Positions 11,673 to 52,767 of a DNA stretch of 64,000 nt are shown piece after piece (positions within the stretch are counted from its first letter, which is position 1; every line of letters starts with the position of its first letter). Source of the stretch: a bacterium (GTDB taxonomy: Bacteria > Patescibacteriota > Minisyncoccia > Phycocordibacterales > Phycocordibacteraceae); assembly GCA_021836725.1 (NCBI GenBank), contig JAKBHL010000011.1, positions 18,210-82,209 on the forward strand, given 5' to 3'. The translations under genes were made by a program, and so were the position numbers. The notes below the pieces were generated by a model. The model worked only from the letters and a program-made list of their open reading frames with translations. It had not been told where the DNA came from and searched no databases.

Positions 11673-12653
11673 ATGTCAACCCCTCCGCGAAAGTCCGAGC
11701 CCCTTCCCCAAGCGCTCGATGCTGCGCTCCGGCCGGCGCATTGGGATGACTATGTCGGTCAGAAACAGATAAAAGCGAATATACGCATCGCCATTGACGC
11801 CGCTAAAAAGCGCGGCGGGATGCCCGAGCATATCCTCTTCTACGGCCCGCCGGGAGTCGGGAAAACGACCCTTGCCCATCTTGTCGCCGCGACGCTCGGA
11901 TCCCAGCTCAAAAGCACCTCCGGAGTTGCCATAGAGCGTGCCGGAGATCTTGCGGCGATACTTACCGCTCTCGAACCGAATACGGTTCTTTTTATCGACG
12001 AGATTCACCGCCTCTCGCGCAAAATCGAGGAACTTCTCTACCCCGCGCTCGAGTCTGGGCATCTCGACATTGTGCTGGGGAAAGGTCCCTCGGCGCGTAC
12101 CGTCGAACTCGCGCTTCCGCCTTTCATGCTCATCGGCGCGACAACGCGCGTCGCGGAGCTGTCGGGCCCGCTGCGTTCCCGTTTCGGCGGCGGCGTGTAC
12201 CAGCTCGATTTTTACAGTGACGACGACTTGCGCGACATCATCCGCCGCTCGGCTCTCCTTCTGGAGCTTTCGGCTCCCGAGGAAGTCATTGAACGCATCG
12301 CGGCGCGCAGTCGCGCCACCCCCCGCGTCGCGAATGCGCTTCTGAAACGCGTGCGCGACTTTTCCGAAGTGCATGAGCGCGCGCTCTCCGCCGCGCTCTG
12401 CGATGAGGCATGTGCGCTTTTTGGCATTGATTCATGCGGGCTGACAAAAGATGACCGCCGCTATCTCCTTACGCTCGCCGAGGGTTTCCGCGGCGGCCCT
12501 GCGGGTATCCGCGCGCTCGCGGCTGCTTTGCATGAAGACCCCGACACGGTTGAGTACATGTACGAGCCTTTTTTGCTTCGACTTGGTTTTATCGAACGCT
12601 CCGCACGCGGCCGCGTGCTCACCTCAAAAGGCCGTTCCTATCTCCAAAACTGA
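11673..12653 (+). CDS. ruvB: Holliday junction DNA helicase RuvB
   Basis: HILFYGPPGVGKTTLAHLVA Walker A, LFIDEIHRL, sensor motifs. An extended -10 element tgtgatagaat sits at 11642-11652. Confidence 0.95.
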   Translation: MSTPPRKSEPLPQALDAALRPAHWDDYVGQKQIKANIRIAIDAAKKRGGMPEHILFYGPPGVGKTTLAHLVAATLGSQLKSTSGVAIERAGDLAAILTALEPNTVLFIDEIHRLSRKIEELLYPALESGHLDIVLGKGPSARTVELALPPFMLIGATTRVAELSGPLRSRFGGGVYQLDFYSDDDLRDIIRRSALLLELSAPEEVIERIAARSRATPRVANALLKRVRDFSEVHERALSAALCDEACALFGIDSCGLTKDDRRYLLTLAEGFRGGPAGIRALAAALHEDPDTVEYMYEPFLLRLGFIERSARGRVLTSKGRSYLQN

Positions 12654-12693
12654 CTCGCACCGCGCGGTGCTCCGTATTTGCTATAGTGCAGGC

Positions 12694-13251
12694 ATGTCAG
12701 GGCACAGCAAATGGTCTCAAATCAAGAGACAGAAATCGGCAACCGATGCGGCAAAAAGCCGGATTTTTGCGCGCTACGCGCGCCTGATAGCCCTTGAATC
12801 GAAAAAAGCCGCGGGAAATGCCTCGGCGCCATCCCTATCCGTTGCCATTTCCCGAGCAAAAGCGGCGAATATGCCGAAAGAAAATATAGAGCGGGCAGTG
12901 GCGAAAGGAATGGCAAAAGATTCCGGCGACTTTGAGCGGGTACTCTACGAAGCGTTCGGCCCGGGTGGCGCCGCACTGCTCATTGACGCGCTCACCGACA
13001 ACAAGAATCGTACGACGCAAGAGATAAAACACTTGCTTATAACGCATGGGGTCGAACTCTCCGCCCCGGGCGCGGCAAGCTGGGCTTTCAGCAAGACCTC
13101 GGACGGTTCCTATGCGCCGCATGAACCGTATGTCGATGTCGTCGGTCCCGATGAGGAACGGCTCGAGACCATCCTGACGGAGCTCGACGAACATGCCGAT
13201 GTGCAGAGGGTGTTTAGCAATGCGCGGGGTTATGAGAATACTGGCGATTGA
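12694..13251 (+). CDS. yebC: YebC/PmpR-family DNA-binding regulator
   Basis: MSGHSKWSQIKRQKSATDAAKS... is the canonical YebC N-terminus. Confidence 0.9.
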   Translation: MSGHSKWSQIKRQKSATDAAKSRIFARYARLIALESKKAAGNASAPSLSVAISRAKAANMPKENIERAVAKGMAKDSGDFERVLYEAFGPGGAALLIDALTDNKNRTTQEIKHLLITHGVELSAPGAASWAFSKTSDGSYAPHEPYVDVVGPDEERLETILTELDEHADVQRVFSNARGYENTGD

Positions 13252-13708
13252 TCCTGGGTACGATCGCCTCGGCATCGCGGTCATCGAAGGCAATCCGTCG
13301 CGTCCGACGCTCCTTTGGAGCGATTGTGTGCTGCCGGAGAAAGGCGCGCCCGAGCGCCGTCTCGCCGATGTCACCGGTGCCGTCACTGCTGCGCTTCATG
13401 CTTATGCGCCCGATGCGCTTGCTATCGAGACGCTCTTTTTTGGGAAAAATAAAAAAACCGCGCTCGGCGTTGCGGAGGCGCGCGGCGCGGTTTTTGCCGC
13501 CGCCGGCATGGTTTCGGTTCCGGTCGTGGAATATTCTCCGCAACAGATAAAACTCGCGGTTACCGGCTACGGCGGCGCGAACAAAACCGCAATCGCGCAG
13601 ATGATTCCCCGGCTTCTCTCGCTCTCCGAGAAAAAACGGATGGATGATGAAATCGATGCTATAGCCATCGGCATCACCGCGCTTGCCGTCGGATCTCAAA
13701 AACACTAA
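13232..13708 (+). CDS. ruvC: crossover junction endodeoxyribonuclease RuvC
   Basis: MRILAIDPGYDRLGIAVIEG...AIETLFF...DAIAIGITAL. The start overlaps the yebC 3' end. Confidence 0.85.
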   Translation: MRILAIDPGYDRLGIAVIEGNPSRPTLLWSDCVLPEKGAPERRLADVTGAVTAALHAYAPDALAIETLFFGKNKKTALGVAEARGAVFAAAGMVSVPVVEYSPQQIKLAVTGYGGANKTAIAQMIPRLLSLSEKKRMDDEIDAIAIGITALAVGSQKH

Positions 13709-16277: not shown

Positions 16278-17378
16278 TTATTGATTCATCGGTGAAATGA
16301 GATAGAGGAGGGAAGGGTCGCCGACTCCTTTTATAATGAGCGGGCGCCCGATACCGGCGGCGGTGAGCGAAAGGCTTTCTGTATTTGTGAGCGCAAGCAC
16401 GGCTGAAAGGTAACGGTGGTTAAAAGAGAGATCGAGAGCGCTTCCGGTTATTTGCGCAGAAAGCGTTTCTGCCGATTCTCCGATATCGGTATTGTGTGCA
16501 AAGAAAGAAAAGTGATTTTTTTTAGGATCGAAATTGATGCGTATTTTTTGGAAAGAATCTGAAAAAATAGCCGTTCTTTTTAGCGCGGTTTCAAAATCCC
16601 TCCTAAGAACCATAGCTTCGACGATGGATTCCTTCGGAATAATCTGCCGGTAATCGGGATAGGCGGCGTTTGTAAGCCGTGAGACAATCATCCCGGCCGC
16701 GCTGGTGAATGCGCATTGATGCTCATCAAACACAATGGTAACGTCGCCATCGGGCAGGGCTTGCGCGATTTCTACGGCATTTTTTGCCGGGATGAGGAGT
16801 TTTCCTTGTATCCCTTTATTGCCGAGTGTTATTTTCTTTTCAGCAAGCCGGAATGAGTCCGTTGCGACCGCTATGAGCATCCCTCCTTCCAGGGAAAGGT
16901 AAATGCTTGAGAGTTCAGGGCGTATGGTTGAGTTTGATGCGCAGGAGGCGATCGAGGTGAAAAGGGTGCGGAGGAGGGTTCCGGAAAGGATTATTTTATT
17001 TTTTTGATTTTCAGGAAATGGGATTGAGGGGAAATCGTCGTGGGGTACTGTTTTTACCGAGCTTTTGCCGGTACCGCTTGCAAGAGAGACGATGTCACCA
17101 GTATGTTCGAGTGTTATTTTCCCTTCCTGAGTGAGTGATCCTGCTATTTGTTGCAGAATAGCCGCCGGAATGGCGACAACCCCCTTGCTTTTACATTCTC
17201 CCTCGAGTGTGAGATCGATGCCGGTCTCGAGATTTGTCGCGCGCATTTTTATTCCATCATCTCCGGCGATGATAAGGATAGAAGAGAGGGCGGGGAGAGA
17301 AGCGCTTTTGCGTTCGGCGAATCGAGCGACTTTATACACTGCCTCAATAAATATCTTTTTTTCTATTGAAATATACAT
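16278..17378 (-). CDS. dnaN: DNA polymerase III beta sliding clamp
   Basis: 366 aa in three clamp-like domains, begins MYISIEKKIFIEAVYKVARFAERK, and sits just downstream of dnaA. Confidence 0.9.
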   Translation of the reverse strand: MYISIEKKIFIEAVYKVARFAERKSASLPALSSILIIAGDDGIKMRATNLETGIDLTLEGECKSKGVVAIPAAILQQIAGSLTQEGKITLEHTGDIVSLASGTGKSSVKTVPHDDFPSIPFPENQKNKIILSGTLLRTLFTSIASCASNSTIRPELSSIYLSLEGGMLIAVATDSFRLAEKKITLGNKGIQGKLLIPAKNAVEIAQALPDGDVTIVFDEHQCAFTSAAGMIVSRLTNAAYPDYRQIIPKESIVEAMVLRRDFETALKRTAIFSDSFQKIRINFDPKKNHFSFFAHNTDIGESAETLSAQITGSALDLSFNHRYLSAVLALTNTESLSLTAAGIGRPLIIKGVGDPSLLYLISPMNQ

Positions 17379-17489
17379 ACGACTTTTATTAAGGCTGTTG
17401 ATAAGGGGATAAACGAAAATCAGAACTCAATGACTCGATATTTTTACAACCACGGAACACATAATGTGTGGATAAAGGGAGTGAAAGGT
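17379..17489. promoter_or_regulatory. putative oriC core (dnaA-dnaN spacer with DnaA boxes)
   Basis: AT-rich spacer containing a perfect DnaA box TTATCCACA (minus strand, 17467-17475) and the near-consensus TTATCAACA (17396-17404). Confidence 0.55.
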
Positions 17490-18845
17490 TCATACAAGAA
17501 GCGTACGGATATTTTGAATCTCTTTTGCGAGCTCACTATCCACAACAACTTCACGTTTTATCTTCTCACAAGAGTGGATAACTGTCGTGTGGTCTCTACC
17601 ACCAAGTTTCACACCGATCGTTGGGTATGAAATACTAAAATCTTCACGAAGAATGTACATAATAACCTGACGCGGCCGCACCACCTCTCTCCGCCGCGTC
17701 TTTTCATAGATGCTTTCCTCATCAATGCCGTAAAATTCAGCAACCTTATCCACCACATTCTTTACGGATATATTCTTCTGCGGCCGCGTAAACGAACGCA
17801 GCGACTGACGCACCTCCGCTATATCAGGCGCAAAACCCTTTACTTGAGCATGGCAGATAATGCTGTTTACCATGCCTTCCAATTCCCGTATGGACCCGCT
17901 CATAGAGGTCGCCACATACTCAACAACCTCATCGGAAAGCATCACCCCATGAGAGGCGGCCTTTTTCCGCACTATGGCCATACGCGACTCCGGATCCGGT
18001 TCCCCGATATCGATGGCCATACCGCTCGCTAAACGGCCCTTCAGCCGCTCCGCGACGTCTGGAATGGCCGCCGGAGCCCGGTCTGAGGAGAAGATAATCT
18101 GCTTGTTTGTATCATGAAGCGCATTGAAAAGGTGGAAAAGCTCCTCCTGTGTCCGGTCTTTTTTTGAAAGAAACTGCACATCATCCATGATAAGTAGATC
18201 GTACTGACGATATTTATCCTTGAAGCGATTCGCGGTGCCTGCCTGAACGGAGTCGGTATAATCAACCGCGAATTTCTCCGAAGTAAGGTAGAACACCTTC
18301 CGACCCGGGTATTGTTTCTTAAAATGGTTCCCGATGGCCTGGATAAGATGTGTTTTTCCGCGCCCCGTGTCGCCATAAATGAAGAGTGGGTTATAAGAGA
18401 TGCCTGGGCGCTGCAAGGTCGCCTGCGCAGCGGCATACGCGAGATTATTGAAAGAACCAATAACAAACGTATCAAACGTGTAACGGGGGTTCAGGTTATC
18501 ACTCTTGTTTATGTAAAACTCATCGAGCGGAAGCTCAAGCGCTCCCCGCACGTTCTTGGCCTCCTTTGAGGGCAGTTTACGGCGTTCATCCTTCACAATG
18601 AGATATTCGATATTGCGGAATTCATAGGACACATCCCGCAGGATCTTCAAAAGAAGCGTATGGAACTTCTTCAGATACCAATCCTTGAAGAATTGGCTCG
18701 GCACGCCGATGTACACCACCCCATCCTCGCCTATTTTCACGATAAAACTGTTCCGGAACCACGTATTGAAATTCGCGGGCGATATCGAAAGCTCAACTTG
18801 CGTGAGCACGTATTCCCACAACTCCTTCGGGTTCCCTTTGTCCAT
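17490..18845 (-). CDS. dnaA: chromosomal replication initiator DnaA
   Basis: GDTGRGKTHLIQAIGN Walker A, IDDVQFL, C-terminal DNA-binding domain. Start at MDKGNPKELWEYV... (ATG complement of 18843-18845). Confidence 0.95.
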   Translation of the reverse strand: MDKGNPKELWEYVLTQVELSISPANFNTWFRNSFIVKIGEDGVVYIGVPSQFFKDWYLKKFHTLLLKILRDVSYEFRNIEYLIVKDERRKLPSKEAKNVRGALELPLDEFYINKSDNLNPRYTFDTFVIGSFNNLAYAAAQATLQRPGISYNPLFIYGDTGRGKTHLIQAIGNHFKKQYPGRKVFYLTSEKFAVDYTDSVQAGTANRFKDKYRQYDLLIMDDVQFLSKKDRTQEELFHLFNALHDTNKQIIFSSDRAPAAIPDVAERLKGRLASGMAIDIGEPDPESRMAIVRKKAASHGVMLSDEVVEYVATSMSGSIRELEGMVNSIICHAQVKGFAPDIAEVRQSLRSFTRPQKNISVKNVVDKVAEFYGIDEESIYEKTRRREVVRPRQVIMYILREDFSISYPTIGVKLGGRDHTTVIHSCEKIKREVVVDSELAKEIQNIRTLLV

Positions 18846-19082: not shown

Positions 19083-19394
19083 GTGTTTCCGCGCAAAGAA
19101 CGGCTTGCGCGCGACGCGTTTCCCGCGCTGCTTTCAGGCGGAAAAAGGTTCTCGTCGGCGAACTTCACCGCGCTCGCTTCAAGCGAAGGAAAGGGATACG
19201 CAGTCGTCGTATCGAAAAAGGTTGCGCGGCTCTCGGTCACGCGACACCGCATAAAACGCCGCGTTCTTGAAGCGCTGCGCACCCTCCCCCTCCCCCGATC
19301 CCTGGTCCTTTTCCCAAAATCCGCAACAAATTCTATGAGTTTTCAAGATATCCAAAAAGAGCTGTCCGGTCTCCTTTCAAAAATCCGCCACTAA
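19083..19394 (+). CDS. rnpA: RNase P protein component
   Basis: 103-aa basic protein after rpmH with ...VVVSKKVARLSVTRHRIKRRVLEAL. Confidence 0.8.
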   Translation: MFPRKERLARDAFPALLSGGKRFSSANFTALASSEGKGYAVVVSKKVARLSVTRHRIKRRVLEALRTLPLPRSLVLFPKSATNSMSFQDIQKELSGLLSKIRH

Positions 19395-19408: not shown

Positions 19409-20173
19409 GTGATATCGACTTTCTTCCACGCGGTTTTCTACAATCCGATTTACAACGCGCTCGTCGCGCTCGTCGCGCTCGTTCCCGGGTCGAATGTGGG
19501 TGTCGCGGTCATTCTCATCACGATCGTTATCCGGCTCGTGCTCCTTCCCTTCTCGCTTTCGGCAGCCCGCACTCAGCGGGCAATGAAGTTTTTGGAGCCG
19601 AAAATAAAAGATCTGAAAGAGAAGCATAAGGGCGACAAAGAAAAAGAAGCGCTCGAAACCCTCGCGCTCTATCGCGAAGCGCGCGTGAATCCTTTCGCAA
19701 GCATCCTGACGGTCTTTATACAGATCCCCGTTCTCCTCGCGCTCTACTGGGTGTTCCTTTACGAACCGTTTTCAACGATCGATACCGCACGGCTCTACGC
19801 ATTCACCCCCATTCCGCACGCCGTTTCGCTCGAGTTCCTCGGACTCGCTTCGATCGCCGGCAAAAGCATAGTTCTCGCGGCGCTCGCGGGCTTCACCCAG
19901 TTTCTTCAGGCGCATATGGCTCTCTCGGGCACGATGAAACCCTCAGCAACCGGCGGCATGCAGGGGGATTTCCAAAAGGTAATGGGCATGCAGCTCAAGT
20001 ACGTCTTCCCGTTCCTTATCGCAACTATTTCCTACACCACCTCCGCCGCCATCGCCCTTTACTTCATCACGACGAACCTCGCCGGATCATTGCAGGAATG
20101 GCATGTCCGCCGAAAAATCCACGCGGAGTTCGGGCCGCAAAATCCGATTCCCGAAACAGTCTCCGCGGCGTAA
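19409..20173 (+). CDS. yidC: membrane protein insertase YidC (short form)
   Basis: 254-aa polytopic protein with ...IRLVLLPFSL...KFLEPKIKDLKEKHKGDKEK...LYREARVNPFAS (YidC/Oxa1 core). GTG start. Confidence 0.85.
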   Translation: MISTFFHAVFYNPIYNALVALVALVPGSNVGVAVILITIVIRLVLLPFSLSAARTQRAMKFLEPKIKDLKEKHKGDKEKEALETLALYREARVNPFASILTVFIQIPVLLALYWVFLYEPFSTIDTARLYAFTPIPHAVSLEFLGLASIAGKSIVLAALAGFTQFLQAHMALSGTMKPSATGGMQGDFQKVMGMQLKYVFPFLIATISYTTSAAIALYFITTNLAGSLQEWHVRRKIHAEFGPQNPIPETVSAA

Positions 20174-21388
20174 TCAGAGCTTATACGACCACAACGACCC
20201 GTCGTTTTTGTTTATAAAAGCGAGAACGGTGCCGGAAGGATCGATCGCGAGCGCTTCAGCGTCAAGCGGGCTACTCGTCTCTTTCGAGAAATCGAGCACA
20301 AGCTGCGCAAAGCGGCCCGCAACATCTATCTTCCAGATGCGATCGGAGAAGTGCACCGCGCCCTGGTACCAGTCGTCGGGGTATGCGTAATTTTTAGGCG
20401 GGTTCATGGGGATACCGCAATACACTGCGGAATTGTCAGCCGCCCACACGCACTTGTCCGCGATGGTCGCTACGGGGAGCGGCACCACTGCGCCCGTTGC
20501 CACGTTCACAAGCTCCATCTGCATGCCTTGCGGGAGCGTATAGCTTACCAACACCCACTTCCCGGACGGGCTTGCGAGGGCGACAAGGCCGTTCAAGGGC
20601 CCCGCGATGCGCGAAAAGCGTCCGGCGCTATCAACGATGAACGCATCGCCCGGAAGCGTTGCCGAAGGTTTTGTGAACGCAAGATACTGATTCTTCCCCG
20701 CAAAGGAGACGCGGAGCGAGGAGAGCGGCGTGGTGAATATCTCCGAGGAGTGCGTGCCGTCCGTGCGCATGAGCGAGGCGGATGAACCGTTCACTCCGGA
20801 GGCGAGTGCGAGCACGCTTGTCGAGGAAACGGCCAGGTCGGAAAGGTTTTGCGGCAGGAAGAAGCCGTTTCCGTCGTTTGCCGAGAGCGCGTAGGTATTG
20901 ATGGTAGAAAAGTCAGCGCCCGAAAGATAACGCACGAAAGCTAAAGAAGCATTCGGAAGCCACGAGGCCTCCTCGATGCCCGGGAGAGTTTTGTTTGAGG
21001 TGCGGGTGAGCACGCCCGTGCCGATTTGATATGAAAATACATTGCCGCTTTGCCGCTCGATATACGTAACTACGGTATCCGGAGAAGAACTCGCGTTTTT
21101 CGCAGAAATATCCACGACGGCCTCTCCTGGTACGACCGGGCCGGCGCTTATCTTCACTAGCCGCGCAGAAACCACGGTAGGCACGGGCGCACTGGAGGCT
21201 GAGGAAGTCGGTGTTTGACTGGTAGATGTCGGCACCGCTCCCTGCCCTGCCGTGGGCAGATTCGCACTTCCGCTCGGCGCCACTGTCACGCCCGGGGCGT
21301 TTGCGAAGAAATAAAAATACGCGACCACCCCCGCCCCGAGGGCGACTATCACAAGCGCGGCGATGATGAGGTAGCGGCGCATACTCAT
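20174..21388 (-). CDS. membrane-anchored hypothetical protein (possible periplasmic beta-propeller)
   Basis: N-terminal TM (RRYLIIAALVIVALGAGVVAYFYFF), a Ser/Thr-rich linker, and a C-terminal region ending ...DGSLWSYKL. The start could also be 21382. Confidence 0.55.
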   Translation of the reverse strand: MSMRRYLIIAALVIVALGAGVVAYFYFFANAPGVTVAPSGSANLPTAGQGAVPTSTSQTPTSSASSAPVPTVVSARLVKISAGPVVPGEAVVDISAKNASSSPDTVVTYIERQSGNVFSYQIGTGVLTRTSNKTLPGIEEASWLPNASLAFVRYLSGADFSTINTYALSANDGNGFFLPQNLSDLAVSSTSVLALASGVNGSSASLMRTDGTHSSEIFTTPLSSLRVSFAGKNQYLAFTKPSATLPGDAFIVDSAGRFSRIAGPLNGLVALASPSGKWVLVSYTLPQGMQMELVNVATGAVVPLPVATIADKCVWAADNSAVYCGIPMNPPKNYAYPDDWYQGAVHFSDRIWKIDVAGRFAQLVLDFSKETSSPLDAEALAIDPSGTVLAFINKNDGSLWSYKL

Positions 21389-22353
21389 TGGAATGGCGTC
21401 CAACTTGGATTGTCGGCACATTTAGTATCCAAATTACCGTACCAAGAGACGTCTTCGCACGTTAATTTTTCAGGATAACATTTCCAAGATGTTCCATACG
21501 AGGGATCATTTTTTGTCAACTGACAAGGAACTGAAGAATAGGTTATGTGTAGACCAGAAGTCGGGTCATCACTCACGCAAGTTTTGAATCCAACATTTGC
21601 AGCATGGCATATGTTTGCGAAAGCCATAGCGTCAGCTCCATTGTTCGGTCTTGAAGGATAGTGAACCAAGGGCTGTAATATGTTGATTGTGAGTGAAAAG
21701 AAGCTCTGGTCGTATATGAATACATACCCTTGTTTCCCGGTACAAGTTGCCACATATGTCGGTACTCCGTTCGAAGAATTAGTTATGGAAGTGACAGACA
21801 GGTTTCCATCGGTACAATTCTGCTGACCCCATGTTGTGGCCTGATTATTGGTAAAACACTTTGCTATTTGGAGAATGCCGGGCGTACCGTTCACTGAACA
21901 TTGAGACGGTGTTGGACTGGTAGGTCCCGACCCGCTCCCGCCTCCTGCCGGAGCTGTCAGGTTGACCGGCGACATGCCGATGGAGAGGTTCAGGATGCTC
22001 GGATTGATGATGGAGAAAACGAGCACGGGCAACAAGACAAGAACAAGACCGAAAATAGCGTTATATATCCTCCCTTTGCTGTCCAAAATCTTGCTGACAT
22101 TGTCTTTATTCGTCGCTATCTCAAGACCGCCCCAAATGATCATGATGACCGCGAGAACCGCGGCGGCTCCGATGAGGAACTTGTAGAGATTGTTGAGAAA
22201 AGAGGCAATGCCGCCCGAGGTCGCTTGAACGCCCTGAGTGAGGCCGGGGATGCCCGCGAGCGGAACAAATCCCTGATTATTAGTCTGGGCTAGGGCATGA
22301 GGCACAAATGCGAGAAACGCAAAGAAAATCGACATGATCAGTATTTTTTTCAT
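21385..22353 (-). CDS. T4SS-pilin-like (TrbC/VirB2-type) protein fused to a Cys-rich secreted domain; low-GC gene
   Basis: Signal peptide MKKILIMSIFFAFLAFVPHALA, then ...FLNNLYKFLIGAAAVLAVIMIIWGGLEIATN...FGLVLVLLPVLVFSIINPSIL (two TM hairpin typical of conjugative pilins), then a ~200-aa domain with 12 Cys. GC is about 42% against ~60% flanking. Confidence 0.6.
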   Translation of the reverse strand: MKKILIMSIFFAFLAFVPHALAQTNNQGFVPLAGIPGLTQGVQATSGGIASFLNNLYKFLIGAAAVLAVIMIIWGGLEIATNKDNVSKILDSKGRIYNAIFGLVLVLLPVLVFSIINPSILNLSIGMSPVNLTAPAGGGSGSGPTSPTPSQCSVNGTPGILQIAKCFTNNQATTWGQQNCTDGNLSVTSITNSSNGVPTYVATCTGKQGYVFIYDQSFFSLTINILQPLVHYPSRPNNGADAMAFANICHAANVGFKTCVSDDPTSGLHITYSSVPCQLTKNDPSYGTSWKCYPEKLTCEDVSWYGNLDTKCADNPSWTPFQ

Positions 22354-23354
22354 AGGCCGAAGAGATTACCGCCCGTCTGCGCTCCGAAAGAGAGCGAAAG
22401 ATTCGCCGTCGCCTTGATGAAGTCGCCGGAAGAGGCGACGAGCGAGAGCGACGCGCTCCCTCCCCCGCTTCCGGTCGGACGCAGTGTGATGGAGTTCCCC
22501 GTCTGCGCCGCGGCGCCGTTCAAGAACCACTCCAGGGCAGGCGCCGCGGCGCTGGTCGGGAAAGAAAACGGCGCCGCGTAGAGCGAAGCTTCCGTTCCCG
22601 TGATCGCATAACTGTCGGCAAGAGCGTGATCATACAGGATGCCGAGCAAGGGATCATTTTTATAGATGCGCACCACCGGCTCTTCGGCGGTGAGTGAGGA
22701 CGATGCGCCGCCCGTGATGCTACCGCTTGGGTTTTCGACCGCTACCGAGACCGTACTTTCACGGTACTGTAGCGGCGAGGCGACGATGATCGCGTCCTTG
22801 CCGATGCCCGAAGCGCTTGCGATTTGCGTGCCATTGACCGTCCAGGTGTATGAAAGCGTTCCGGGATCGAGCGTTCGTCCGTTTCCGTCCCGCAGATTCG
22901 CTACAGCGACCATTCGCGTACTCCCTTCGAGCGGTACAAGCGGTTTACCGGCGTAAAGCGGCGGGGCCGAGGAGACCGGTTCAGCGATGAGGCTGACATC
23001 CTGGGGACGGATCGAAAGCGTCTGGCTGTATTGTGTTCCGTTTATGGAAATAACCACTTTTACGTTCATGAGAACTCCCGCTCCGCCGAGCGTCACGGCG
23101 ACCGGCTGCACGTTGCCGCGGTACACCTGTGTGCCGCCGGCAAAGACGGCCATCGTCGCGCCGGAAAGATCGAGCGACGAGGAAAGCTCGGACACCGTAA
23201 CTTGGCTATAGGGCGCCGGATACTGCGGACTCACCGATAGCGTAAAGGATTGAGAGGTATTGATATTGAAGGATTGTGCGCTTGCCGCAAAAGGCGCGGA
23301 AAAAGCCAGTATGACAAGAGCACCGAGAAGCGGTCGCAAAGAGTGCGCGGGCAT
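22350..23354 (-). CDS. secreted hypothetical protein (T4SS-module associated)
   Basis: 334-aa ORF with signal peptide MPAHSLRPLLGALVILAFSAPFAASA and a Ser/Thr/Gly-rich body. Confidence 0.55.
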   Translation of the reverse strand: MPAHSLRPLLGALVILAFSAPFAASAQSFNINTSQSFTLSVSPQYPAPYSQVTVSELSSSLDLSGATMAVFAGGTQVYRGNVQPVAVTLGGAGVLMNVKVVISINGTQYSQTLSIRPQDVSLIAEPVSSAPPLYAGKPLVPLEGSTRMVAVANLRDGNGRTLDPGTLSYTWTVNGTQIASASGIGKDAIIVASPLQYRESTVSVAVENPSGSITGGASSSLTAEEPVVRIYKNDPLLGILYDHALADSYAITGTEASLYAAPFSFPTSAAAPALEWFLNGAAAQTGNSITLRPTGSGGGSASLSLVASSGDFIKATANLSLSFGAQTGGNLFGL

Positions 23355-23383
23355 GCCTCCAGTATATCGCGTGTGCGGGGTCG

Positions 23384-24025
23384 TTATGCCGCTTCGCGAG
23401 TGTCGGCGGGGATTTCCTCGCCGCCATAATCCTCGTCATTTGCGGCCTGCTCTTCCTCCGCCGCGCGCATTTGCATGACTTGCATGACCTGCCGCGCCTG
23501 TATTTCCCGTTCTTGCTCTCGCACGGCAGCCTGTTCTTTTTCATACTGTTTCAGAGCCTTCCTTTCTTTCTTTATCTGAGCGTGATACATCTTCCAGGTT
23601 GTAGCGGTCAATACTGGCACCGTACCCACAAGCGGCACCTCGCTTACGCCGAGACTGAACAGCATCCACAGCGCGTTACCCGCATTCTCCTTGAATATGC
23701 GCGCATCGGTGATCACCAGCATGAGTCCGACCGTCATCCATCCGAGGAATCCGACCGCCATGGCCATGACGATCCCGAGCACTTCAATCGCACCGGCGCC
23801 GAAAATACCCGCCGCGCCGCCCACGACCGTCCCCGCGACATGCCCAGCAGTCCCGCCGCCCACAAGCGCGCTTGTCCCGACGCCGATAAAAAGCGGCGCG
23901 AAAAGCCAGAATTGTTCGAACATGAAACGCAGCGCGTCGAAGATGAGACAGACGACGAGGACCGGCACCGCTTTCGCCCAGGTCATCGTCTTGGGCGGCT
24001 GATTACTGTTTCTGCGCGAGGGCAT
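23384..24025 (-). CDS. polytopic membrane protein (VirB6/TrbL-like candidate)
   Basis: 4-5 TM helices, Gly-rich (GGTAGHVAGTVVGGAAGIFGAGAIEVLG), and a charged C-terminal tail. It lies immediately downstream of the VirB4-like ATPase. The start may be at M14 (MTWAKAV). Confidence 0.5.
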   Translation of the reverse strand: MPSRRNSNQPPKTMTWAKAVPVLVVCLIFDALRFMFEQFWLFAPLFIGVGTSALVGGGTAGHVAGTVVGGAAGIFGAGAIEVLGIVMAMAVGFLGWMTVGLMLVITDARIFKENAGNALWMLFSLGVSEVPLVGTVPVLTATTWKMYHAQIKKERKALKQYEKEQAAVREQEREIQARQVMQVMQMRAAEEEQAANDEDYGGEEIPADTREAA

Positions 24026-25823
24026 GGCGTTCCTTCTCCTCTTTCATCGCAAGAAGCTGCGAAGGATCGGACGTGATGATCTGGTCTTCGGTGTAGCTTG
24101 CGACGACTTTTATGGCAACATGCTTCAATCCCGCGAAAAAGAGGCCCTCGCCCACCCCGGCCTCGAGAAGAAGATATTTTTCCTCATCGGTCAGATTGAA
24201 CGTCTCCTGGAGCACCCCGATCGTCGTTGGCGATTGTTTCAACAGCAATTGCAGGGAAGAGTTGGTGAGAATCGGCCTGCCGTACGGGCTCTTGAGGAAG
24301 TCCTCCACATCCTGCGTTATGGTGCAGACGCCAAGGTAATACTTGCGTCCGCGTTTGGCGACGGAATATAGGAAGGAGGCGGTATCTTCGCTCTTCATCA
24401 TCCACCATGCCTCATCAATTACCAGGAGGCGTTTCTTGAGTTCGTGACGCACCGCGTTCCAGATGTAGTGCGTGATGATATACATAGCCGCAGGCTTGAG
24501 CTCGTCCTCCATATCGCGCACCGAAAAGACCGCGAACTGCTGGTTGATATCGATATTGGTCGGCTGGTTGAGGAATCCGGACCACGTGCCACGCGTGTAT
24601 TTTGAAAGCCGCTCCACCAAGGATTCGCTTCCCTCCATGCCGGAGAGCACTTGTTCGAAATCGGACAGAAGCGGCGGCTCGGCGCCGGTGAAATCCGCAT
24701 CGCCTGTGATGTCTTTGAGCGCATACGTCTCGCTGATGGCACGGTCGACGATAGCATCTTCCTCCGGCGACAATCCCGAGAGCATGATGCGGAAAAGTCC
24801 GACGAGCGCGATGATGTTGGAGCGCAGGATGTCTTTTGGGTCCTCGTCTTCTTTGACGGGCGGGAGGTCGAAAGGATTGATATGGTGTTCCGAAGAAAGC
24901 GAGATGTGGAAGGAGCGGCCGCCGGTCGCCTCGGCAAGCTGCTCGTACTCGTGCTCGGGGTCGATGACGATGACGTCGGTGCCGAACATGAGGGAACGGA
25001 GTATCTCGAGCTTCGTCGCGTAGCTCTTCCCGCTTCCGGACTTCGCGAAGATGACCGAATTGTAGTTCTCAAGCGAGAAGCGATCGAAGAGGATGAGCGA
25101 AGAATTGTGCCGGTTGATGCCGTAGAGGATGCCGCGGTCGCTCGTGAGGTCGAAGGAGATGAATGGGAAGATCGAGGAAAGCGGCGAGGAGTTCAGCTTT
25201 GAATTGACGAGGAGCTCGTCGCTGCCGAGCGGCAGGCAGGAACGGAACCCTTGCTCCTGCTGGAAGAGCGCGGGTTTGGTGTAGACAAGCTTCGCATCAA
25301 GAATGCCGCGGATATCGCCCTCGGTCTTATTAATCTCTTCCTTGGAGTCACCATAGAGCGCAAGGTACAGGCCGACATCGAAAAGCTTTTCCTGCGCCTG
25401 CTGGAGGTTGTCGCGCAGATTTTCAAGATCCTGGTATGCGGTATCGAGCAAGGGGTCGCGCACAAGCCCCCTCGCTTCGCGCTCGCTTATCTGGCTTTGC
25501 ACCTCGGCGACTTTTTTCTGGAATCCGCGGAGCGCCTGCGCCGTCTCTATCGGGTGGATGAATATCGATACGTCAAGCACCTTGTCGAGATTGATGACCG
25601 GCGAGAACCAGCTGTCGGAAAGAAACCGCGGGTAGGAGACGGTATAAAAAGCGCGGACGAATTTTTCTCCGAGCTCAAGCTCGCGCGAACCGATCTTGAG
25701 CGCGGTCGGGGCGATGGTGTCGATGAGATTCAAAGAACCTTGCCGGTAAATGTCTCTCGGCAAGACCGGGACTATGGCCGGCGCCTCCTCTTTTTTACGG
25801 TTTAGGAAGTTGAGAAGTGACAT
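24003..25823 (-). CDS. VirB4/TrbE-family type IV secretion ATPase (core and C-terminal part)
   Basis: Walker A FAKSGSGKSYATK, Walker B LLVIDEAWWMMK, plus DUF87-like features, 606 aa. Confidence 0.8.
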   Translation of the reverse strand: MSLLNFLNRKKEEAPAIVPVLPRDIYRQGSLNLIDTIAPTALKIGSRELELGEKFVRAFYTVSYPRFLSDSWFSPVINLDKVLDVSIFIHPIETAQALRGFQKKVAEVQSQISEREARGLVRDPLLDTAYQDLENLRDNLQQAQEKLFDVGLYLALYGDSKEEINKTEGDIRGILDAKLVYTKPALFQQEQGFRSCLPLGSDELLVNSKLNSSPLSSIFPFISFDLTSDRGILYGINRHNSSLILFDRFSLENYNSVIFAKSGSGKSYATKLEILRSLMFGTDVIVIDPEHEYEQLAEATGGRSFHISLSSEHHINPFDLPPVKEDEDPKDILRSNIIALVGLFRIMLSGLSPEEDAIVDRAISETYALKDITGDADFTGAEPPLLSDFEQVLSGMEGSESLVERLSKYTRGTWSGFLNQPTNIDINQQFAVFSVRDMEDELKPAAMYIITHYIWNAVRHELKKRLLVIDEAWWMMKSEDTASFLYSVAKRGRKYYLGVCTITQDVEDFLKSPYGRPILTNSSLQLLLKQSPTTIGVLQETFNLTDEEKYLLLEAGVGEGLFFAGLKHVAIKVVASYTEDQIITSDPSQLLAMKEEKERHALAQKQ

Positions 25824-25825
25824 GG

Positions 25826-26461
25826 CTAATTGTCGAGACGGATAGGATTCTCGAGTTCTCCCGGATTGAACGAACGATACAAGAGCTCGATGATCTCTTC
25901 GGTACCAAGCGAAACCGCTCGCACACCCGTGCCGGAGAGCCCGCTCGCGACAAGCGCAAGCCGCTGCTCCAGTTGCGCGCGATCCTCTTCGAAAGAAGTT
26001 TCGGCAACGCCGTCTTTCGCGCCCGCGCCGCTGCGCCGCAAAAAACCGACGGCACCCGTCGTAGAAACGTGCGGCGCATACGACACGACGACATAGAACG
26101 ATTTCGTCATGATATTCGCCTGATCGGCGAACGAGCGGACAAACTCGATGTACTCATGCAGCTGAATGCGCAAAAGCTCGGTTTTCTGTTCCGGCATCTT
26201 ATCGGCGAGCAGTGCGAGGTAGGGCCGCAAGTCCATTTTGCGCGAATTCACTACGATTTGAATCGAGAAATCGAGCATGTTGAGGAAATTTTGGAAACCG
26301 AGAGTGATCGCGTGCTGTTCATCTGCTGACTTCAGTCCGAAATTTATCGACGAGCAGATGAGTATGCCGCGATAGCTGCCGTCCTTGAGGACAATGACGC
26401 CGTTCCGAATTTCTTTGATCGGGACGAATTGCTGTGTTGCACCCGGGGCGGAGGTTGCCAT
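25826..26461 (-). CDS. VirB4 N-terminal-domain-like protein (VirB4 split into two ORFs)
   Basis: 211-aa ORF ending 3 nt upstream of the ATPase ORF. Its N-terminus ...FVPIKEIRNGVIVLKDGSYRGILICSSINFGLKSADEQ resembles the N-terminal domain of Gram-positive VirB4 homologs. The two ORFs total ~817 aa, the size of a full VirB4. Confidence 0.5.
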   Translation of the reverse strand: MATSAPGATQQFVPIKEIRNGVIVLKDGSYRGILICSSINFGLKSADEQHAITLGFQNFLNMLDFSIQIVVNSRKMDLRPYLALLADKMPEQKTELLRIQLHEYIEFVRSFADQANIMTKSFYVVVSYAPHVSTTGAVGFLRRSGAGAKDGVAETSFEEDRAQLEQRLALVASGLSGTGVRAVSLGTEEIIELLYRSFNPGELENPIRLDN

Positions 26462-26463
26462 AG

Positions 26464-26910
26464 CTAGGATTCTACACTGCGACGGCTGCCGTCCATAGAT
26501 TTTACATCAAGCGACCATGCGAGCTCCGAGAGTTTCCCTCGCGTGAGTTTCGGCGTGCCGCGCGGCGTGCGCGCCTGCGCATCGGCCGCCGCGGCCGCCG
26601 CGGCCGCGGCGTTTTTCTCCGCCGCTTTCGGTTCGGCGTGTTTCCAGAGAAAGAGTTTGCCGCTTGTGTAGTAATTGAATCCGGCTTCAAGCACTTCAAT
26701 GAAGGGTTTCCCGTTCATTTTATAGAAAGAGAGCGCCACCGCGAGCGCCACCACCGGCGCCGAAAAGAGAAGCGCGAGCACTATCGGCAGATAAACGAAG
26801 AGGACAATGCATATGCCGCCCGCGCCGGCGACATATATGAACTGTTTCAGGGTCAAGGGCCCGATTATCTTGTCCTCGACATCGATAAATTGCGGCACTT
26901 GATATTCCAT
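26464..26910 (-). CDS. PrgI/VirB3-like small two-TM protein
   Basis: MEYQVPQFIDVEDKIIGPLTLKQFIYVAGAGGICIVLFVYLPIVLALLFSAPVVALAVAL..., directly upstream of the VirB4 ORFs, which is the PrgI-family pattern. Start chosen at ATG 26910. Confidence 0.55.
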   Translation of the reverse strand: MEYQVPQFIDVEDKIIGPLTLKQFIYVAGAGGICIVLFVYLPIVLALLFSAPVVALAVALSFYKMNGKPFIEVLEAGFNYYTSGKLFLWKHAEPKAAEKNAAAAAAAAADAQARTPRGTPKLTRGKLSELAWSLDVKSMDGSRRSVES

Positions 26911-29714: not shown

Positions 29715-30284
29715 TTAGCTCTGCGTGATTGTTTCTCCGTCCGACACATACGTACTCCTAGGCGTAGAGGAGGAAATGGAAAGTGTTGTAGCGCCGTAGG
29801 AAATAGCAAGCGTTCCAGGCGCACGAATTTCAATACGCACACCACCAAACATAAACGATGCTCCGTAAGGGACGCTGCGAGTGCCCGCTTGCACGCGCGT
29901 CGAGACGGCATACCGGCTCTCCACATCCGGTAGTCCGCCGGCAAAAAGGGTCCCGGGGTCGGTAAGGATGACGGCGTCGATGCTTCTCTGCCACATCGGT
30001 AACGTCTCTCCAAGGGCGCGCAAAATACTCGCATCCGGCCCGGTATCGATAAGAAGCGTCCGGCCATGCGGCGTGCGCACCAAAACCGGATGGTTTTTCT
30101 TTCCTGCGTCGAGTACGGATACGGTTACTACAGGTGGCGCGAATATCTCTCGGTATACGCCAATATTCCCGAGCACGAGCACAAAACACAGGAGAAGCCA
30201 AAAGCGCAGTGGCCACTGGTTCTCCTTGGAGGGAATAGAGTGTGCTTCGACTGTGTTTTCTAGAGCACTCCCGTGGTGCACCAT
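29715..30284 (-). CDS. membrane-anchored metallo-beta-lactamase-fold protein (ComEC C-terminal-domain-like)
   Basis: TM anchor, then ...VLVRTPHGRTLLIDTGPD...DAVILTDP..., resembling the beta-lactamase-like domain normally fused to ComEC. Confidence 0.55.
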   Translation of the reverse strand: MVHHGSALENTVEAHSIPSKENQWPLRFWLLLCFVLVLGNIGVYREIFAPPVVTVSVLDAGKKNHPVLVRTPHGRTLLIDTGPDASILRALGETLPMWQRSIDAVILTDPGTLFAGGLPDVESRYAVSTRVQAGTRSVPYGASFMFGGVRIEIRAPGTLAISYGATTLSISSSTPRSTYVSDGETITQS

Positions 30285-30313
30285 ACGCGAAGTATATGGT
30301 ACATTTTCTTTCT

Positions 30314-30919
30314 ATGACCTACTCAACAAAAACGTTCAACTTTCCCGCCCTTACGGGGCTTTCGGAAGAACAGATCAAGGTGCATCTCGGTCTCTACGAA
30401 GGCTATGTGAAGCATGCGAATCTCATCATGGAGAAGATACACGCGCTCAAAGAAGCGGATGCCGAAGGGAATGCATACCTTATCGCGGAACTTCGACGCC
30501 GTTTCGCGTTTGAATTCAACGGCATGCGCATGCATGAATACTACTTCTCGCAATTTGAAGGCGAGAAGGGAGGGAGTCCTTCATCAGCGCTTGCCGCGGT
30601 CGCAACAAAGAAATACGGGAGCGGAGAGAACTTCATCAAGCATATAAAAGAAGTCGCGGGAAGCCGCGGCATCGGCTGGGTCGTCGTCTATAGCGACCCG
30701 AGCGTGGAGACGCTCCACACCGTCTTCGTGAACGATCACGAGCTCGGACAGCTTGCAGGATTGCCGGTCATCCTCGCGCTTGATCTCTGGGAGCATGCGT
30801 ACATGGTGGACTACGTCCCGGCGGAAAAGAAAAATTATATCGATGCTTTTTTCGCCAATCTCAATTGGAGCGTCATCGAGAAGCGTTTTGACGACGCACT
30901 GAAAGCGAGCGCGGCATAA
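30314..30919 (+). CDS. sodA: Fe/Mn superoxide dismutase
   Basis: DLWEHAYMVDY metal-binding motif, ...NLNWSVIEKRF C-terminus. Start at MTYSTKTFNFPAL (ATG 30314). Confidence 0.9.
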   Translation: MTYSTKTFNFPALTGLSEEQIKVHLGLYEGYVKHANLIMEKIHALKEADAEGNAYLIAELRRRFAFEFNGMRMHEYYFSQFEGEKGGSPSSALAAVATKKYGSGENFIKHIKEVAGSRGIGWVVVYSDPSVETLHTVFVNDHELGQLAGLPVILALDLWEHAYMVDYVPAEKKNYIDAFFANLNWSVIEKRFDDALKASAA

Positions 30920-32334
30920 GCGACAAGTACGAGCCAGAACGGGAAGACGGGAAGCGTAAAAGCCGCCAGCGGAAGCGCCGCGGCTTTTTGCGCGACAAGC
31001 ACGAGGTATGCGTTTGCAAGATACGCGGGGAACGCAAGCGCGATGCCGGCAAATGGCGCAACGGTGCCGAGCAACATGCCGGCAAAACCGGCGAGTGCCG
31101 ACAGGCCCATCGCGAGAGGAACGACCGGCGCCACGAGGATATTTGCCGGCAGCGCGACGATCGAGAAAAGACCCATGTCATAGGCGAGAAGCGGAAGAAC
31201 GGCGAGTTGCGCGGCGAGCGTTGTCGCGACGGCATTTCTCCAAAAAGCATTTTTGAGAAATGAAAGAAGCGTTTCAATGCGAGGCGCGAGCCAGATGAGT
31301 CCGGCAGTCGCCGCCACCGAGAGATCAAAACCGGGATCAAAGACGAGATAGAGCGGATTCCAAAGGAGCATGAGGCACACGACGACGAGGAGCGCGCGAC
31401 CGGCCGCGTAGGATCGGCCGGTCGCGCGCGCATAAAGCGCTATGAATGCCATGAGCATGGCGCGAAGCGCGGTCGCCGATGCGCCGGCGATGAAGACGAA
31501 GAGAAGCACGGCAAGCACAGCCGCGAGAGCTCCCCACCGTCGCGGTAGCTTCGTAAGCGCAAGCGCCGCGAGTACCCATTCCGCCACGACCATCACGTTA
31601 TAGCCGGAGAGAACGATTATTTGTACGAGTCCGGAACGGACGAACGCATCTTGCAAATCTTTCCCAAGACCGGTCTTCCCGCCGATGACGATGCCGCCGG
31701 CAAGCGAGGAATACGGCTCAGGGAGCGTCGCGGAAAGCCCGCCGAGAAACGCATGCTTCACGCGCGCGAGCGCGGCGGGCGGCGAATACCACGGTGCGTT
31801 CGACTCGACGCGAATGAATGCGTAGTTGAGGATGAACTGCACGCCCTCGCGCGCAAGATATTTGTCGTAGCGGAAGACGCGGCCGTTCTCGCTCGTGAAA
31901 GGTTGCGGCACAAGGAGCGTGCCCGAAACTTTCACACGGTCGCCGACGGCAACCACGGGGGAACGGGGAGCGACCGCAAGCATCTTCGTCGACTGCCCGT
32001 CCGACCCAATACGGATCGTCACGCGCTGATTGGCATCGCGCACATCGGGATCGCTCACGACGACGCCCTCATAGGACACGCGGTGCCGAATCTGGTTCGC
32101 GAATGTTCCCGGCAACGGTGCGTCGGCGTAGAGCGTGCGCAACATGCCGAGCGCGCTGAAGACGCAACAGAGCGCACCAAGCGAGTAGGCATGGCGCGGC
32201 TTCAGAAATGCGGCCGCGCCCAAAAGCGTCGCAAGCAAAAGGACGAACGCGACCGGTTCCCAGCCGAACGCGAAAAGCGAACGAAGAAACACCCCGCTTG
32301 CGAGTCCACCAACTGCAAAGAGCAAAAAGATCAT
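30835..32334 (-). CDS. comEC: competence protein ComEC/Rec2 (membrane channel part)
   Basis: About 12 TM helices plus an N-terminal OB-like/DUF4131 region and the ComEC competence domain. Its 3' end overlaps the sodA 3' end by ~85 bp on the opposite strand. Confidence 0.8.
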   Translation of the reverse strand: MIFLLFAVGGLASGVFLRSLFAFGWEPVAFVLLLATLLGAAAFLKPRHAYSLGALCCVFSALGMLRTLYADAPLPGTFANQIRHRVSYEGVVVSDPDVRDANQRVTIRIGSDGQSTKMLAVAPRSPVVAVGDRVKVSGTLLVPQPFTSENGRVFRYDKYLAREGVQFILNYAFIRVESNAPWYSPPAALARVKHAFLGGLSATLPEPYSSLAGGIVIGGKTGLGKDLQDAFVRSGLVQIIVLSGYNVMVVAEWVLAALALTKLPRRWGALAAVLAVLLFVFIAGASATALRAMLMAFIALYARATGRSYAAGRALLVVVCLMLLWNPLYLVFDPGFDLSVAATAGLIWLAPRIETLLSFLKNAFWRNAVATTLAAQLAVLPLLAYDMGLFSIVALPANILVAPVVPLAMGLSALAGFAGMLLGTVAPFAGIALAFPAYLANAYLVLVAQKAAALPLAAFTLPVFPFWLVLVAYAALAFSASSKRFSMTLQLRLAKKASI

Positions 32335-38260: not shown

Positions 38261-38850
38261 AATTGGTTCTTGAGATTACGCAGCGTCGCGGCTCCGGAGA
38301 GTGTGAAGGCGACCGGTGCCCGGTTCACGTTCACGTCGACGACGACCGTCGTCTCAACCGATGCTATCTTCGAGATATTTATCGGTGCGGTGAGCTCGGC
38401 CCCGGTATCGTCGAAGTAGCGGAAGACGGGCGTTGCGGCGTCGTTGACGACCGAGGTCGCTATGGTCGTCGTCGCCGAAGGCGTGCCGGCGTACGAGGGC
38501 GGATTCCCCGCTGAGGATTGGACCACCCGGTACAACGTACCTTGCTGGAGCGTGTAGGTCACGCGTGCGATGGAAGGACTTGCACCATTTATGTTTGCGT
38601 AGAAGGTAATGGATGAAGTCGCGACACTCTCGATAGGGTACGATCCATCGTCCCCATAGGACGCCTCGCGCAGATATTTCATTGCATCCTCGACGCCGAG
38701 CCGCGCCTGTCCTACGGCGATGGATTGTTGAAGCGTATAGGCGTTTGTTTTGTAGAAATAAGCGAGGAGCGTGCCAAGCGTGACCATGATAAGCGCTGTC
38801 ATTGCTATGACGACTATGGTTTCTATCAAAGTGAAGCCGCGGTAGATCAT
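38257..38850 (-). CDS. type IV pilin-like protein (major pilin candidate)
   Basis: Prepilin class III leader MIYRGFTLIETIVVIAMTALIMV (G|FTLIE motif). Confidence 0.75.
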   Translation of the reverse strand: MIYRGFTLIETIVVIAMTALIMVTLGTLLAYFYKTNAYTLQQSIAVGQARLGVEDAMKYLREASYGDDGSYPIESVATSSITFYANINGASPSIARVTYTLQQGTLYRVVQSSAGNPPSYAGTPSATTTIATSVVNDAATPVFRYFDDTGAELTAPINISKIASVETTVVVDVNVNRAPVAFTLSGAATLRNLKNQL

Positions 38851-41761: not shown

Positions 41762-41762
41762 G

Positions 41763-51296: not shown

Positions 51297-51367
51297 TCGG
51301 GCCGCCGAGAATTGAACTCGGTCTGCTTGCTCCCAAAGCAAGTGTACTACCGGCATACTCCGGCCCG
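51297..51367 (-). tRNA. tRNA-Pro(TGG), no encoded CCA
   Basis: Reverse complement cgggccg...cttgc-tttggga-gcaag...ccgagttcaattctcgg-cggcccg-a. Confidence 0.75.
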
Positions 51368-51388
51368 TGAATGGCCATTTTAGCAGTT

Positions 51389-51784: not shown

Positions 51785-51936
51785 GACCTTTAGAAATACG
51801 GCTCATTTCCTAAGTATACTCTAGGGTCAATCATTTTTGTCATTACAGACAGGTGTCCTTTATCCCCATTGTGCACAGGTTTGTACACAGTTCAAAAATC
51901 GTTTTGTAATCACTATTTATTCGTCTTTTCCCTCGG

Positions 51937-52007
51937 TGCGGGCAAGGGTAATCGAAACCCTGTCTCGTGCTTGGCAAGCACGCGTTCTGCCACTGAACCA
52001 TGCCCGC
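51937..52007 (-). tRNA. tRNA-Gly(GCC), no encoded CCA
   Basis: Reverse complement gcgggca...cgtgc-ttgccaa-gcacg...agggtttcgattaccct-tgcccgc-a. Confidence 0.85.
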
Positions 52008-52013
52008 AGGCTG

Positions 52014-52745: not shown

Positions 52746-52767
52746 TCAAGGCAGCGGAAAACTTTTG

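Follow-up and report, generated by a model that had tools for sequence, protein, structure and literature searches.

The type IV secretion systems (T4SSs) of Patescibacteria have been described in a 2025 FEMS review as newcomers to the T4SS superfamily (PMC12857230). In Southlakia, transposon sequencing by Wang et al. (2023) revealed that the T4SS cluster, its pilin array included, is essential for epibiotic growth, and the system was found to combine a Gram-positive-like composition with unexpected pilins and neither a coupling protein nor a relaxase (PMC10633639); comEC of the same organism is, unlike the T4SS, dispensable (PMC10633639; PMC12857230). Quinonero-Coronel et al. (2025) surveyed 3,035 genomes, detected VirB4 in 2,417 of them and placed the Patescibacteria VirB4 as a monophyletic clade nested in MPF-FATA, with TrsD, PrgI/VirB3 and VirB2-like pilins commonly encoded next to virB4, the TrsD homologue being the most abundant T4SS component, VirB6 and VirB8 often undetectable, and dnaA, dnaN and rnpA abundant near virB4 in Paceibacteria; these authors proposed that the systems import DNA or other macromolecules (PMC12102498). 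T4SS pilins rank among the most highly expressed extracellular proteins of unknown function in cultured Paceibacterales (PMC10936435), and a 2026 preprint has reported tubular structures and possible T4SS pili where an RNA-feeding Minisyncoccota parasite meets its host, together with host RNA acquisition. The locus considered here is a cluster of seven minus-strand genes in a stretch of 64,000 nucleotides (positions 18,210 to 82,209 of contig JAKBHL010000011.1, assembly GCA_021836725.1; hereafter the window, in whose coordinates all positions are given) from a bacterium of the Minisyncoccia. Its match to the Patescibacteria T4SS of PMC10633639 (2023) and PMC12102498 (2025) is point by point, and the system is thus one already described.

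The cluster very probably encodes such a Patescibacteria T4SS, related to MPF-FATA, non-conjugative and serving host interaction, an estimate that leaves the substrate aside. A first-pass annotation made from the DNA letters alone had proposed a PrgI/VirB3-like protein with two transmembrane (TM) helices, a VirB4 ATPase divided into an N-domain open reading frame (ORF) and a core ORF, and a composite pilin of TrbC/VirB2 type. Profile searches bore out all three proposals, the VirB4, PrgI and T4SS pilin families being matched above their curated cutoffs. The PrgI protein matches Pfam PF12666 with an E value of 1.5e-9 (38.7 bits against a cutoff of 27). The VirB4 core belongs to the CD1110 family (373 bits against a cutoff of 325, model positions 185–733), carries the Pfam P-loop_TraG domain (E 6e-25), matches the solved VirB4 C-domain PDB 4AG5 (E 4.5e-43), and is 27% identical to residues 228–772 of pCF10 PrgJ (E 5e-44), with intact Walker A (AKSGSGKS) and Walker B (LLVIDE) motifs. 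The 211-residue protein encoded ahead of it aligns with positions 1–168 of the same NCBIfam CD1110 VirB4 model (E 3.3e-7), with the Mbov_0397 VirB4 model (E 6.3e-8) and with TrsD NF041427 (E 4.5e-4), all three below the family cutoffs, and is assigned to the TraC-like family PF26593 in precomputed Pfam annotation of identical contigs. It is a homologue of the N-terminal domain of monoderm VirB4 that is encoded as a separate gene, and the two ORFs jointly cover one full-length monoderm VirB4. A "terminase" match of the TrsD-like protein, the sole hit in a PHROGs scan of the six non-VirB4 products, was discarded as spurious.

The division of VirB4 is best read against 80 species-level loci, which were chosen from a genome collection by VirB4 similarity, come from genomes labelled Kaiserbacteria, Nomurabacteria, Taylorbacteria, Paceibacterota and similar, and were searched with 14 window proteins. 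At the junction (TAG-cc-ATG) the two ORFs lie in different frames, and a separate ORF of about 210 residues precedes virB4 in 78 of the 80 loci; prgI is found in 77, directly upstream of trsD and two genes upstream of virB4. In length, the 120 best relatives of the VirB4 core in the database span 589–611 residues, and Southlakia SEML1_0010–0008 has the same order of prgI, a hypothetical gene and virB4 (612 residues). A frameshift or pseudogene origin of the split was ruled out, both lengths being conserved in 78/80 loci and in Southlakia. Since lengths of about 210 and about 605 residues recur in 78/80 loci and in the 120 best hits, the split is judged to be ancestral rather than an artefact. 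All 120 relatives among the matches listed, as well as all 80 loci, are Patescibacteria, with 74–99% identity as against 27% to pCF10 PrgJ, which is consistent with a place of this VirB4 in the Patescibacteria clade.

The genes of the cluster (Table 1) are joined by 4-nt ATGA overlaps, 2-nt gaps and one 23-nt overlap, the last between the gene for the 213-residue protein and the virB4 stop, while the start of the beta-propeller gene overlaps the pilin stop through an ATGA. Such tight packing of seven minus-strand genes fits a single translationally coupled operon. The first-pass annotation had placed seven co-directional minus-strand genes between 21385 and 26910; the run of seven stands, but only six of them lie within these limits, the seventh (20174–21388) lying outside and abutting yidC, so that the pilin gene is sixth and not, as claimed, last. 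A consensus scan of the operon for promoters and terminators performed no better than on shuffled sequence and was not used. The mechanical prgI ORF reaches back to a TTG at 27003, a start that would overlap zwf; on identical contigs the PrgI length is 148 or 172 residues, depending on the gene caller. At the other end of the operon, the propeller gene converges on yidC, stop codon against stop codon at 20173/20174 with zero intergenic bases, a junction too tight for a conventional terminator.

Table 1. Genes of the T4SS operon and of the neighbouring origin region, in window coordinates
Feature	Position	Strand	Remarks
PrgI/VirB3-like two-TM protein	26464..26910	-	148 aa from ATG at 26910
TrsD-like protein	25826..26461	-	211 aa
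VirB4-family ATPase core	24003..25823	-	606 aa
Small polytopic 4-TM protein	23384..24025	-	213 aa
Secreted Ig-like protein (probable)	22350..23354	-	334 aa
Composite pilin	21385..22353	-	322 aa
TM-anchored beta-propeller protein	20174..21388	-	404 aa from ATG at 21388; last operon gene
yidC	19409-20173	+	Translation; precomputed Pfam on identical contigs
rnpA	19083-19394	+	Translation; precomputed Pfam on identical contigs
dnaA	17490-18929	-	Translation; precomputed Pfam on identical contigs
DnaA-box cluster	17396-17754		DnaA-box match scan
dnaN	16278-17378	-	Translation; precomputed Pfam on identical contigs

The location near oriC that had been proposed for the cluster holds: besides the dnaA, dnaN and rnpA neighbours, 5 of the 15 DnaA-box matches in the window fall into the tabulated box cluster, with a sixth at 18917. 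Together with the minimum of the cumulative GC skew at about 19–21 kb, this places the T4SS cluster beside the probable oriC. The arrangement recurs among the related loci as prgI-trsD-virB4-(small TM gene)-Ig-like-pilin-propeller, followed by yidC-rnpA-dnaA-dnaN, with trsD in 79/80 and, on the flank, yidC in 64/80, dnaA in 59/80 and dnaN in 57/80, many of the misses being contig ends; a synteny check had been suggested at the outset, and the order proved to be kept in 57–64 of the 80 species-level genomes. In 53 of 57 loci the identity of VirB4 is higher than that of DnaA, a comparison which is biased upward by the selection of the loci for VirB4 similarity, a point that weighs against the reading, although a large gap remains. 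Median identities in the most distant tier are 75% for VirB4, 53% for TrsD and 46% for PrgI, compared with 54% for DnaA and 38% each for DnaN and YidC. G+C content is homogeneous across the T4SS region. Neither a relaxase nor a coupling protein of the VirD4/TcpA type (type IV coupling protein, T4CP) was seen in the 64-kb window, where ten unassigned ORFs were scanned with Pfam and the rest judged by reading the translations, in agreement with the first-pass annotation. That annotation had also reported no integrase or att site, which needs amending since the window holds a tyrosine recombinase gene (55626–56543; PF00589, E 7e-42); the sole recombinase of the window, it lies about 29 kb from the cluster and resembles a housekeeping Xer, and the cluster itself bears no mark of a mobile element. 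Because of the synteny over about 60 species, the VirB4 conservation, the uniform G+C and the lack of a relaxase or T4CP in the window, the cluster is taken to be chromosomal and vertically inherited beside oriC, without mobile-element marks. The earlier suggestion, that this T4SS-like machine is chromosomal, possibly non-conjugative and part of an episymbiont, is supported by the family matches, the 57–64/80 synteny, the uniform G+C and the lack of a relaxase or T4CP in the window.

Directly behind virB4 lies the gene for a 213-residue protein with four TM helices, Gly-rich loops and a long cytoplasmic C-terminal helix. An AlphaFold2 model (mean predicted local distance difference test score 79.7) showed the four TM helices and the long C-terminal helix and gave no specific fold match; no Pfam or NCBIfam family was matched, and no similarity to PrgH was detected. 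An alignment of 62 homologues revealed the motifs FDALRF..FEQFWFFGP, MAMAVG..GW, SEVP..G..P and QIKKE, and a C-terminal I-P-x3-R-x-A-A. The family is narrow, with 298 representatives among 1.84 billion proteins in an exhaustive profile search. A TM-rich ORF of 120–290 residues follows virB4 in most related loci, and tblastn recognised it as a homologue of the 213-residue protein in 30/80 loci only. The protein appears, from these comparisons, to be a fast-evolving positional partner of VirB4. It occupies the VirB6 position, but given the lack of a family, fold or PrgH match it is not demonstrably VirB6: no operon product qualified as a VirB6-type polytopic channel protein, and the "VirB6-like" label of the first-pass annotation is unproven and was dropped. 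Some relatives of this family (P0329, P0361 and others; L007 at 11799–13460) are 500–620 residues long and carry, after a charged coiled coil, an additional cytoplasmic C-terminal domain of about 300 residues without a Pfam match.

Two further operon products would act outside the cytoplasm. The 334-residue protein has a cleavable signal peptide, as read from its translation, and its family profile gave weak matches in the PDB to the Ig-like domains of phage Hoc (3SHS, E 3e-4) and to other Ig folds; a weak BiPBP_C match was found in Pfam. It probably consists of tandem Ig-like beta-sandwich domains, and its gene occupies the same position in 76/80 loci. The 404-residue protein comprises an N-terminal TM helix, a disordered Ser/Thr/Pro linker and a beta-propeller, is found in 64/80 loci, and its family gave no match in a sequence-profile search of the PDB. 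No VirB8-like bitopic protein of NTF2 fold was found among the seven operon products; VirB8 was rare outside the class ABY1 in the Patescibacteria survey (PMC12102498).

The composite pilin falls into two parts. Residues 1–125 comprise a signal peptide and a VirB2/T4SS_pilin two-helix domain, which matches PF18895 over residues 46–109 (31.8 bits against a cutoff of 26.6) and TrbC PF04956 below threshold (E 2e-5), whereas residues 126–322 form an extracellular domain with ten cysteines that is strain-variable. Alignment of the pilins revealed an invariant N-domain and a variable C-domain with conserved cysteine positions; the N-domain is detectable in 63/80 loci and the C-domain in 4/80 only. 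The pilin genes of the relatives encode 140–474 residues (median 295), a range which suggests that C-terminal extensions are usual in this pilin class. In the 64-kb window the pilin is present as a single copy.

Comparison with the near-identical strain L082 (GCA_027422635.1), with a third strain, L083 (ena ERZ27237563 k141_501821), and with L001 revealed where this variability is located. Over the 12.7 kb aligned with L082 there are 175 differences, of which 166 lie in the pilin and propeller genes and 9 in dnaN; from dnaA to the S2P gene, 87 differences fall into the pilin C-domain, 17 into its N-domain and 62 into the propeller gene, with zero elsewhere. The divergent block (20950–22353) consists of the pilin gene (21385–22353) and the first 75 or so propeller codons (~21164–21388), in which the divergence of the propeller gene is concentrated and which encode the TM helix and linker; divergence peaks at the pilin C-terminal domain. 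Between L083 and the window the pilin is 64.6% identical, as against 100% identity in the 334-residue secreted protein, the 4-TM protein, YidC and DnaA. Synonymous divergence (dS) within the block is 0.19–1.9 and the ratio of nonsynonymous to synonymous divergence (dN/dS) 0.03–0.28; for the pilin C-domain (dN/dS 0.18–0.28) no average signal of positive selection was obtained. High dS combined with low dN/dS between identical flanks points to recombinational replacement by an imported divergent allele rather than to rapid point evolution. The L083 contig appears mosaic relative to the window between 16 and 29 kb, being 100% identical at the protein level from dnaA through the 4-TM gene and then 99.3% in VirB4, 97% in TrsD, 92% in PrgI and 85% in Zwf, which reflects either strain recombination or a chimeric metagenome assembly.

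In the mechanism that we propose, PrgI/VirB3 and the 4-TM protein would form a membrane platform, and the TrsD-like protein and the 606-residue VirB4 would supply the function of the single VirB4 of pCF10 and power assembly. The VirB2-like pilin would be pulled from the membrane and polymerised with its variable, Cys-rich C-domain facing outward, while the Ig-like and TM-anchored propeller proteins may be envelope or extracellular contact parts in place of the missing VirB8 and adhesin functions, the whole machine serving the host-dependent lifestyle. A bolder version would hold that in Paceibacteria T4SSs the usual VirB6, VirB8 and adhesin parts have been replaced by the 4-TM, Ig-like and propeller proteins, and that the disulfide-rich C-domain of the single pilin is a host-specificity determinant which strains exchange, together with the propeller linker, in a block of about 1.2 kb through homologous recombination; this we regard as speculative and rather doubtful as a whole. 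It draws on the confinement to this block of all differences from dnaA to the S2P gene between otherwise identical strains, and on a synonymous divergence there of 0.46–1.9. Among roles, the one placed first, though only tentatively and well short of probable, is a contact conduit for the uptake of host macromolecules, with nucleic acids as the best guess. Uptake is favoured because a coupling protein and relaxase are lacking and import precedents exist in ComB and Ced, because competence is dispensable in Southlakia but the T4SS is essential, and because these organisms lack nucleotide synthesis.

Several points weigh against this picture. The role of such systems is called "completely unknown" in a PNAS perspective. 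With no VirB6 or VirB8 homologue identified, the composition of the channel is conjectural. A 197-residue domain on each pilin subunit may be too bulky for packing into a VirB2-type filament, and the pilin might instead be a membrane-anchored adhesin. Finally, T4CP homologues are encoded elsewhere in most Patescibacteria genomes (PMC12102498), and the negative obtained here covers the 64-kb window, which leaves some probability to export by way of a coupling protein.

The strongest competitor, which we nevertheless consider unlikely, is that the T4SS injects effectors of protein nature into its host, in the manner of Dot/Icm, Cag or the bacteria-killing T4SS of Xanthomonas. Protein exporters that operate without a T4CP, such as Ptl and Brucella VirB, load their substrates via the periplasm, and a monoderm has no equivalent compartment, which counts against such export here. 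Protein export is the function of most non-conjugative T4SSs, Wang et al. suggest that the system "may instead export proteins" (PMC10633639), and effector delivery has been speculated on in the PNAS perspective; yet no coupling protein is encoded in or near the operon, no adjacent gene resembles an effector or an immunity pair, and the T4CP homologue of Southlakia is not essential whereas its T4SS is (PMC12102498). Less probable still would be an adhesive pilus or surface fibre only, in which VirB4 acts as a pilin dislocase without translocation and the Cys-rich domain is a host-binding adhesin. The fusion of the pilin to a strain-variable, disulfide-rich extracellular domain, the binding-type folds of the accessory proteins (Ig-like and beta-propeller), the lack of a substrate-recruiting ATPase and the very high expression of T4SS pilins (PMC10936435) all fit this view. 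Adhesion and motility are, however, already provided by type IV pili, for which the same window carries two loci, and the conservation of VirB4, TrsD and PrgI exceeds what would be expected for pilus assembly alone; by sequence data, the adhesive pilus and the uptake conduit are inseparable. A negligible chance is left to the idea, rejected on synteny and composition, that the cluster is an integrated conjugative element, or what decay has left of one, lying near oriC by accident. In its favour, the closest similarities of VirB4, PrgI and the TrsD-like protein are to components of monoderm conjugative elements (pCF10, pGO1 and integrative conjugative elements of CD1110 type), and the window holds a tyrosine recombinase gene. 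Against it stand a gene order beside yidC-rnpA-dnaA-dnaN that about 60 species-level genomes share, a constraint on VirB4 stronger than that on DnaA, the even G+C content, and a 64-kb window in which neither a relaxase nor a T4CP was seen; the recombinase stands 29 kb off among housekeeping genes, and relaxases occur in only 103 of 3,035 Patescibacteria genomes (PMC12102498).

Other features of the window were noted in passing. The first-pass annotation had listed no VirB1 or VirB11 in the window, and its inventory is corrected by a LysM-M23 peptidase (60835–61752, 34 kb from the cluster) and two PilB-type ATPases, all of them far from the cluster. One PilB-like ATPase stands alone (9771–11441) and represents one type IV pilus locus; at a second locus (36845–43604), one operon encodes PilB, PilC, pseudopilins and a 567-residue pseudopilin-like protein carrying CarboxypepD_reg domains, and the two lie within 15 kb of the T4SS operon, one on each side. 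ComEC is encoded as two ORFs, 30835–32334 (DUF4131 and Competence domains) and 29715–30284 (a metallo-beta-lactamase-like tail), both overlapped by a superoxide dismutase gene on the opposite strand (30242–30919), a layout that is repeated on independent contigs. A stretch of low G+C (51297–52839; 47–49% against about 57%) contains a 243-residue ORF with a weak helix-turn-helix match (52014–52745, minus strand) between tRNA genes at 51937–52007 and 52768–52839, with a third tRNA gene at 51297–51367; a tRNA cluster may here have received a small piece of foreign DNA. A 318-residue protein (5056–6012) combines an N-terminal TM helix with a near-threshold match to the Lamin Tail Domain (PF00932, 33.7 against 34.3 bits), an unusual extracellular domain for a bacterium of such size.

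The interpretation as a non-conjugative T4SS of host contact gains its interest from the epibiotic life of a huge, mostly uncultured radiation, for which few machines are known to be essential, the Patescibacteria T4SS among them. The opinion of the first-pass annotation that this combination is "poorly described" is outdated, exactly such a system being described in PMC10633639, PMC12102498 and PMC12857230; what the window presents is the Paceibacteria arrangement, clean and complete, and no new kind of system, with a conservation of the ATPase module that exceeds that of DnaA. Beyond the published work, two small additions are made: the three lineage-specific accessory proteins (4-TM, Ig-like and propeller) conserved in synteny, and the strain-divergent block at the pilin C-domain. 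Parts that deserve testing are the small membrane protein, which evolves fast, the Ig-like and propeller proteins, and the pilin domain that varies between strains.

Among known systems, H. pylori ComB and archaeal Ced are VirB4-family machines for uptake without a relaxase or coupling protein and have been proposed in the literature as analogies. The window system is not a member of Ced, since the CedB model reached 32 bits against a cutoff of 700 (E 4.8e-8) and no CedA-like match was found (CedD reached 24 bits against a cutoff of 600), and the outer-membrane parts of ComB are irrelevant in a monoderm. With the MPF-FATA systems Prg/Pcf of pCF10 and Trs of pGO1 the cluster shares the VirB4 core (27% to PrgJ) and the PrgI family protein, and with pGO1 the separate N-domain protein of TrsD type; it differs from them in having no equivalents of PcfC/VirD4, the relaxase, the PrgK hydrolase, PrgL/VirB8 or PrgH/VirB6, in possessing a VirB2-like pilin, which is absent from Gram-positive systems (PMC12102498), and in being, as judged above, chromosomal and vertically inherited.

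Closer is the T4SS of Southlakia epibionticum (Saccharibacteria; SEML1_0006–0019), the only member tested by experiment, in which prgI, a hypothetical TrsD-like gene and a 612-residue virB4 stand in the same order, the pilins are likewise VirB2-like (PF18895), and no recognisable relaxase or coupling protein is encoded in the cluster. Peculiar to Southlakia are a VirB6-like protein of large size, an NTF2-like (VirB8-like) protein, a T4SS protein of 998 residues and six short pilins in an array, whereas the window has one long composite pilin and, with no detectable VirB6 or VirB8, the 213-residue 4-TM, Ig-like and beta-propeller proteins instead. The closest counterpart is the Paceibacteria T4SS as surveyed in PMC12102498, where Ig-like, beta-propeller and small 4-TM proteins or C-terminal extensions of the pilin are not discussed. 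Both encode a TrsD homologue besides VirB4, have PrgI/VirB3 and, near virB4, a VirB2-like pilin, lack a relaxase and neighbour dnaA, dnaN and rnpA, and nothing essential differs between them.

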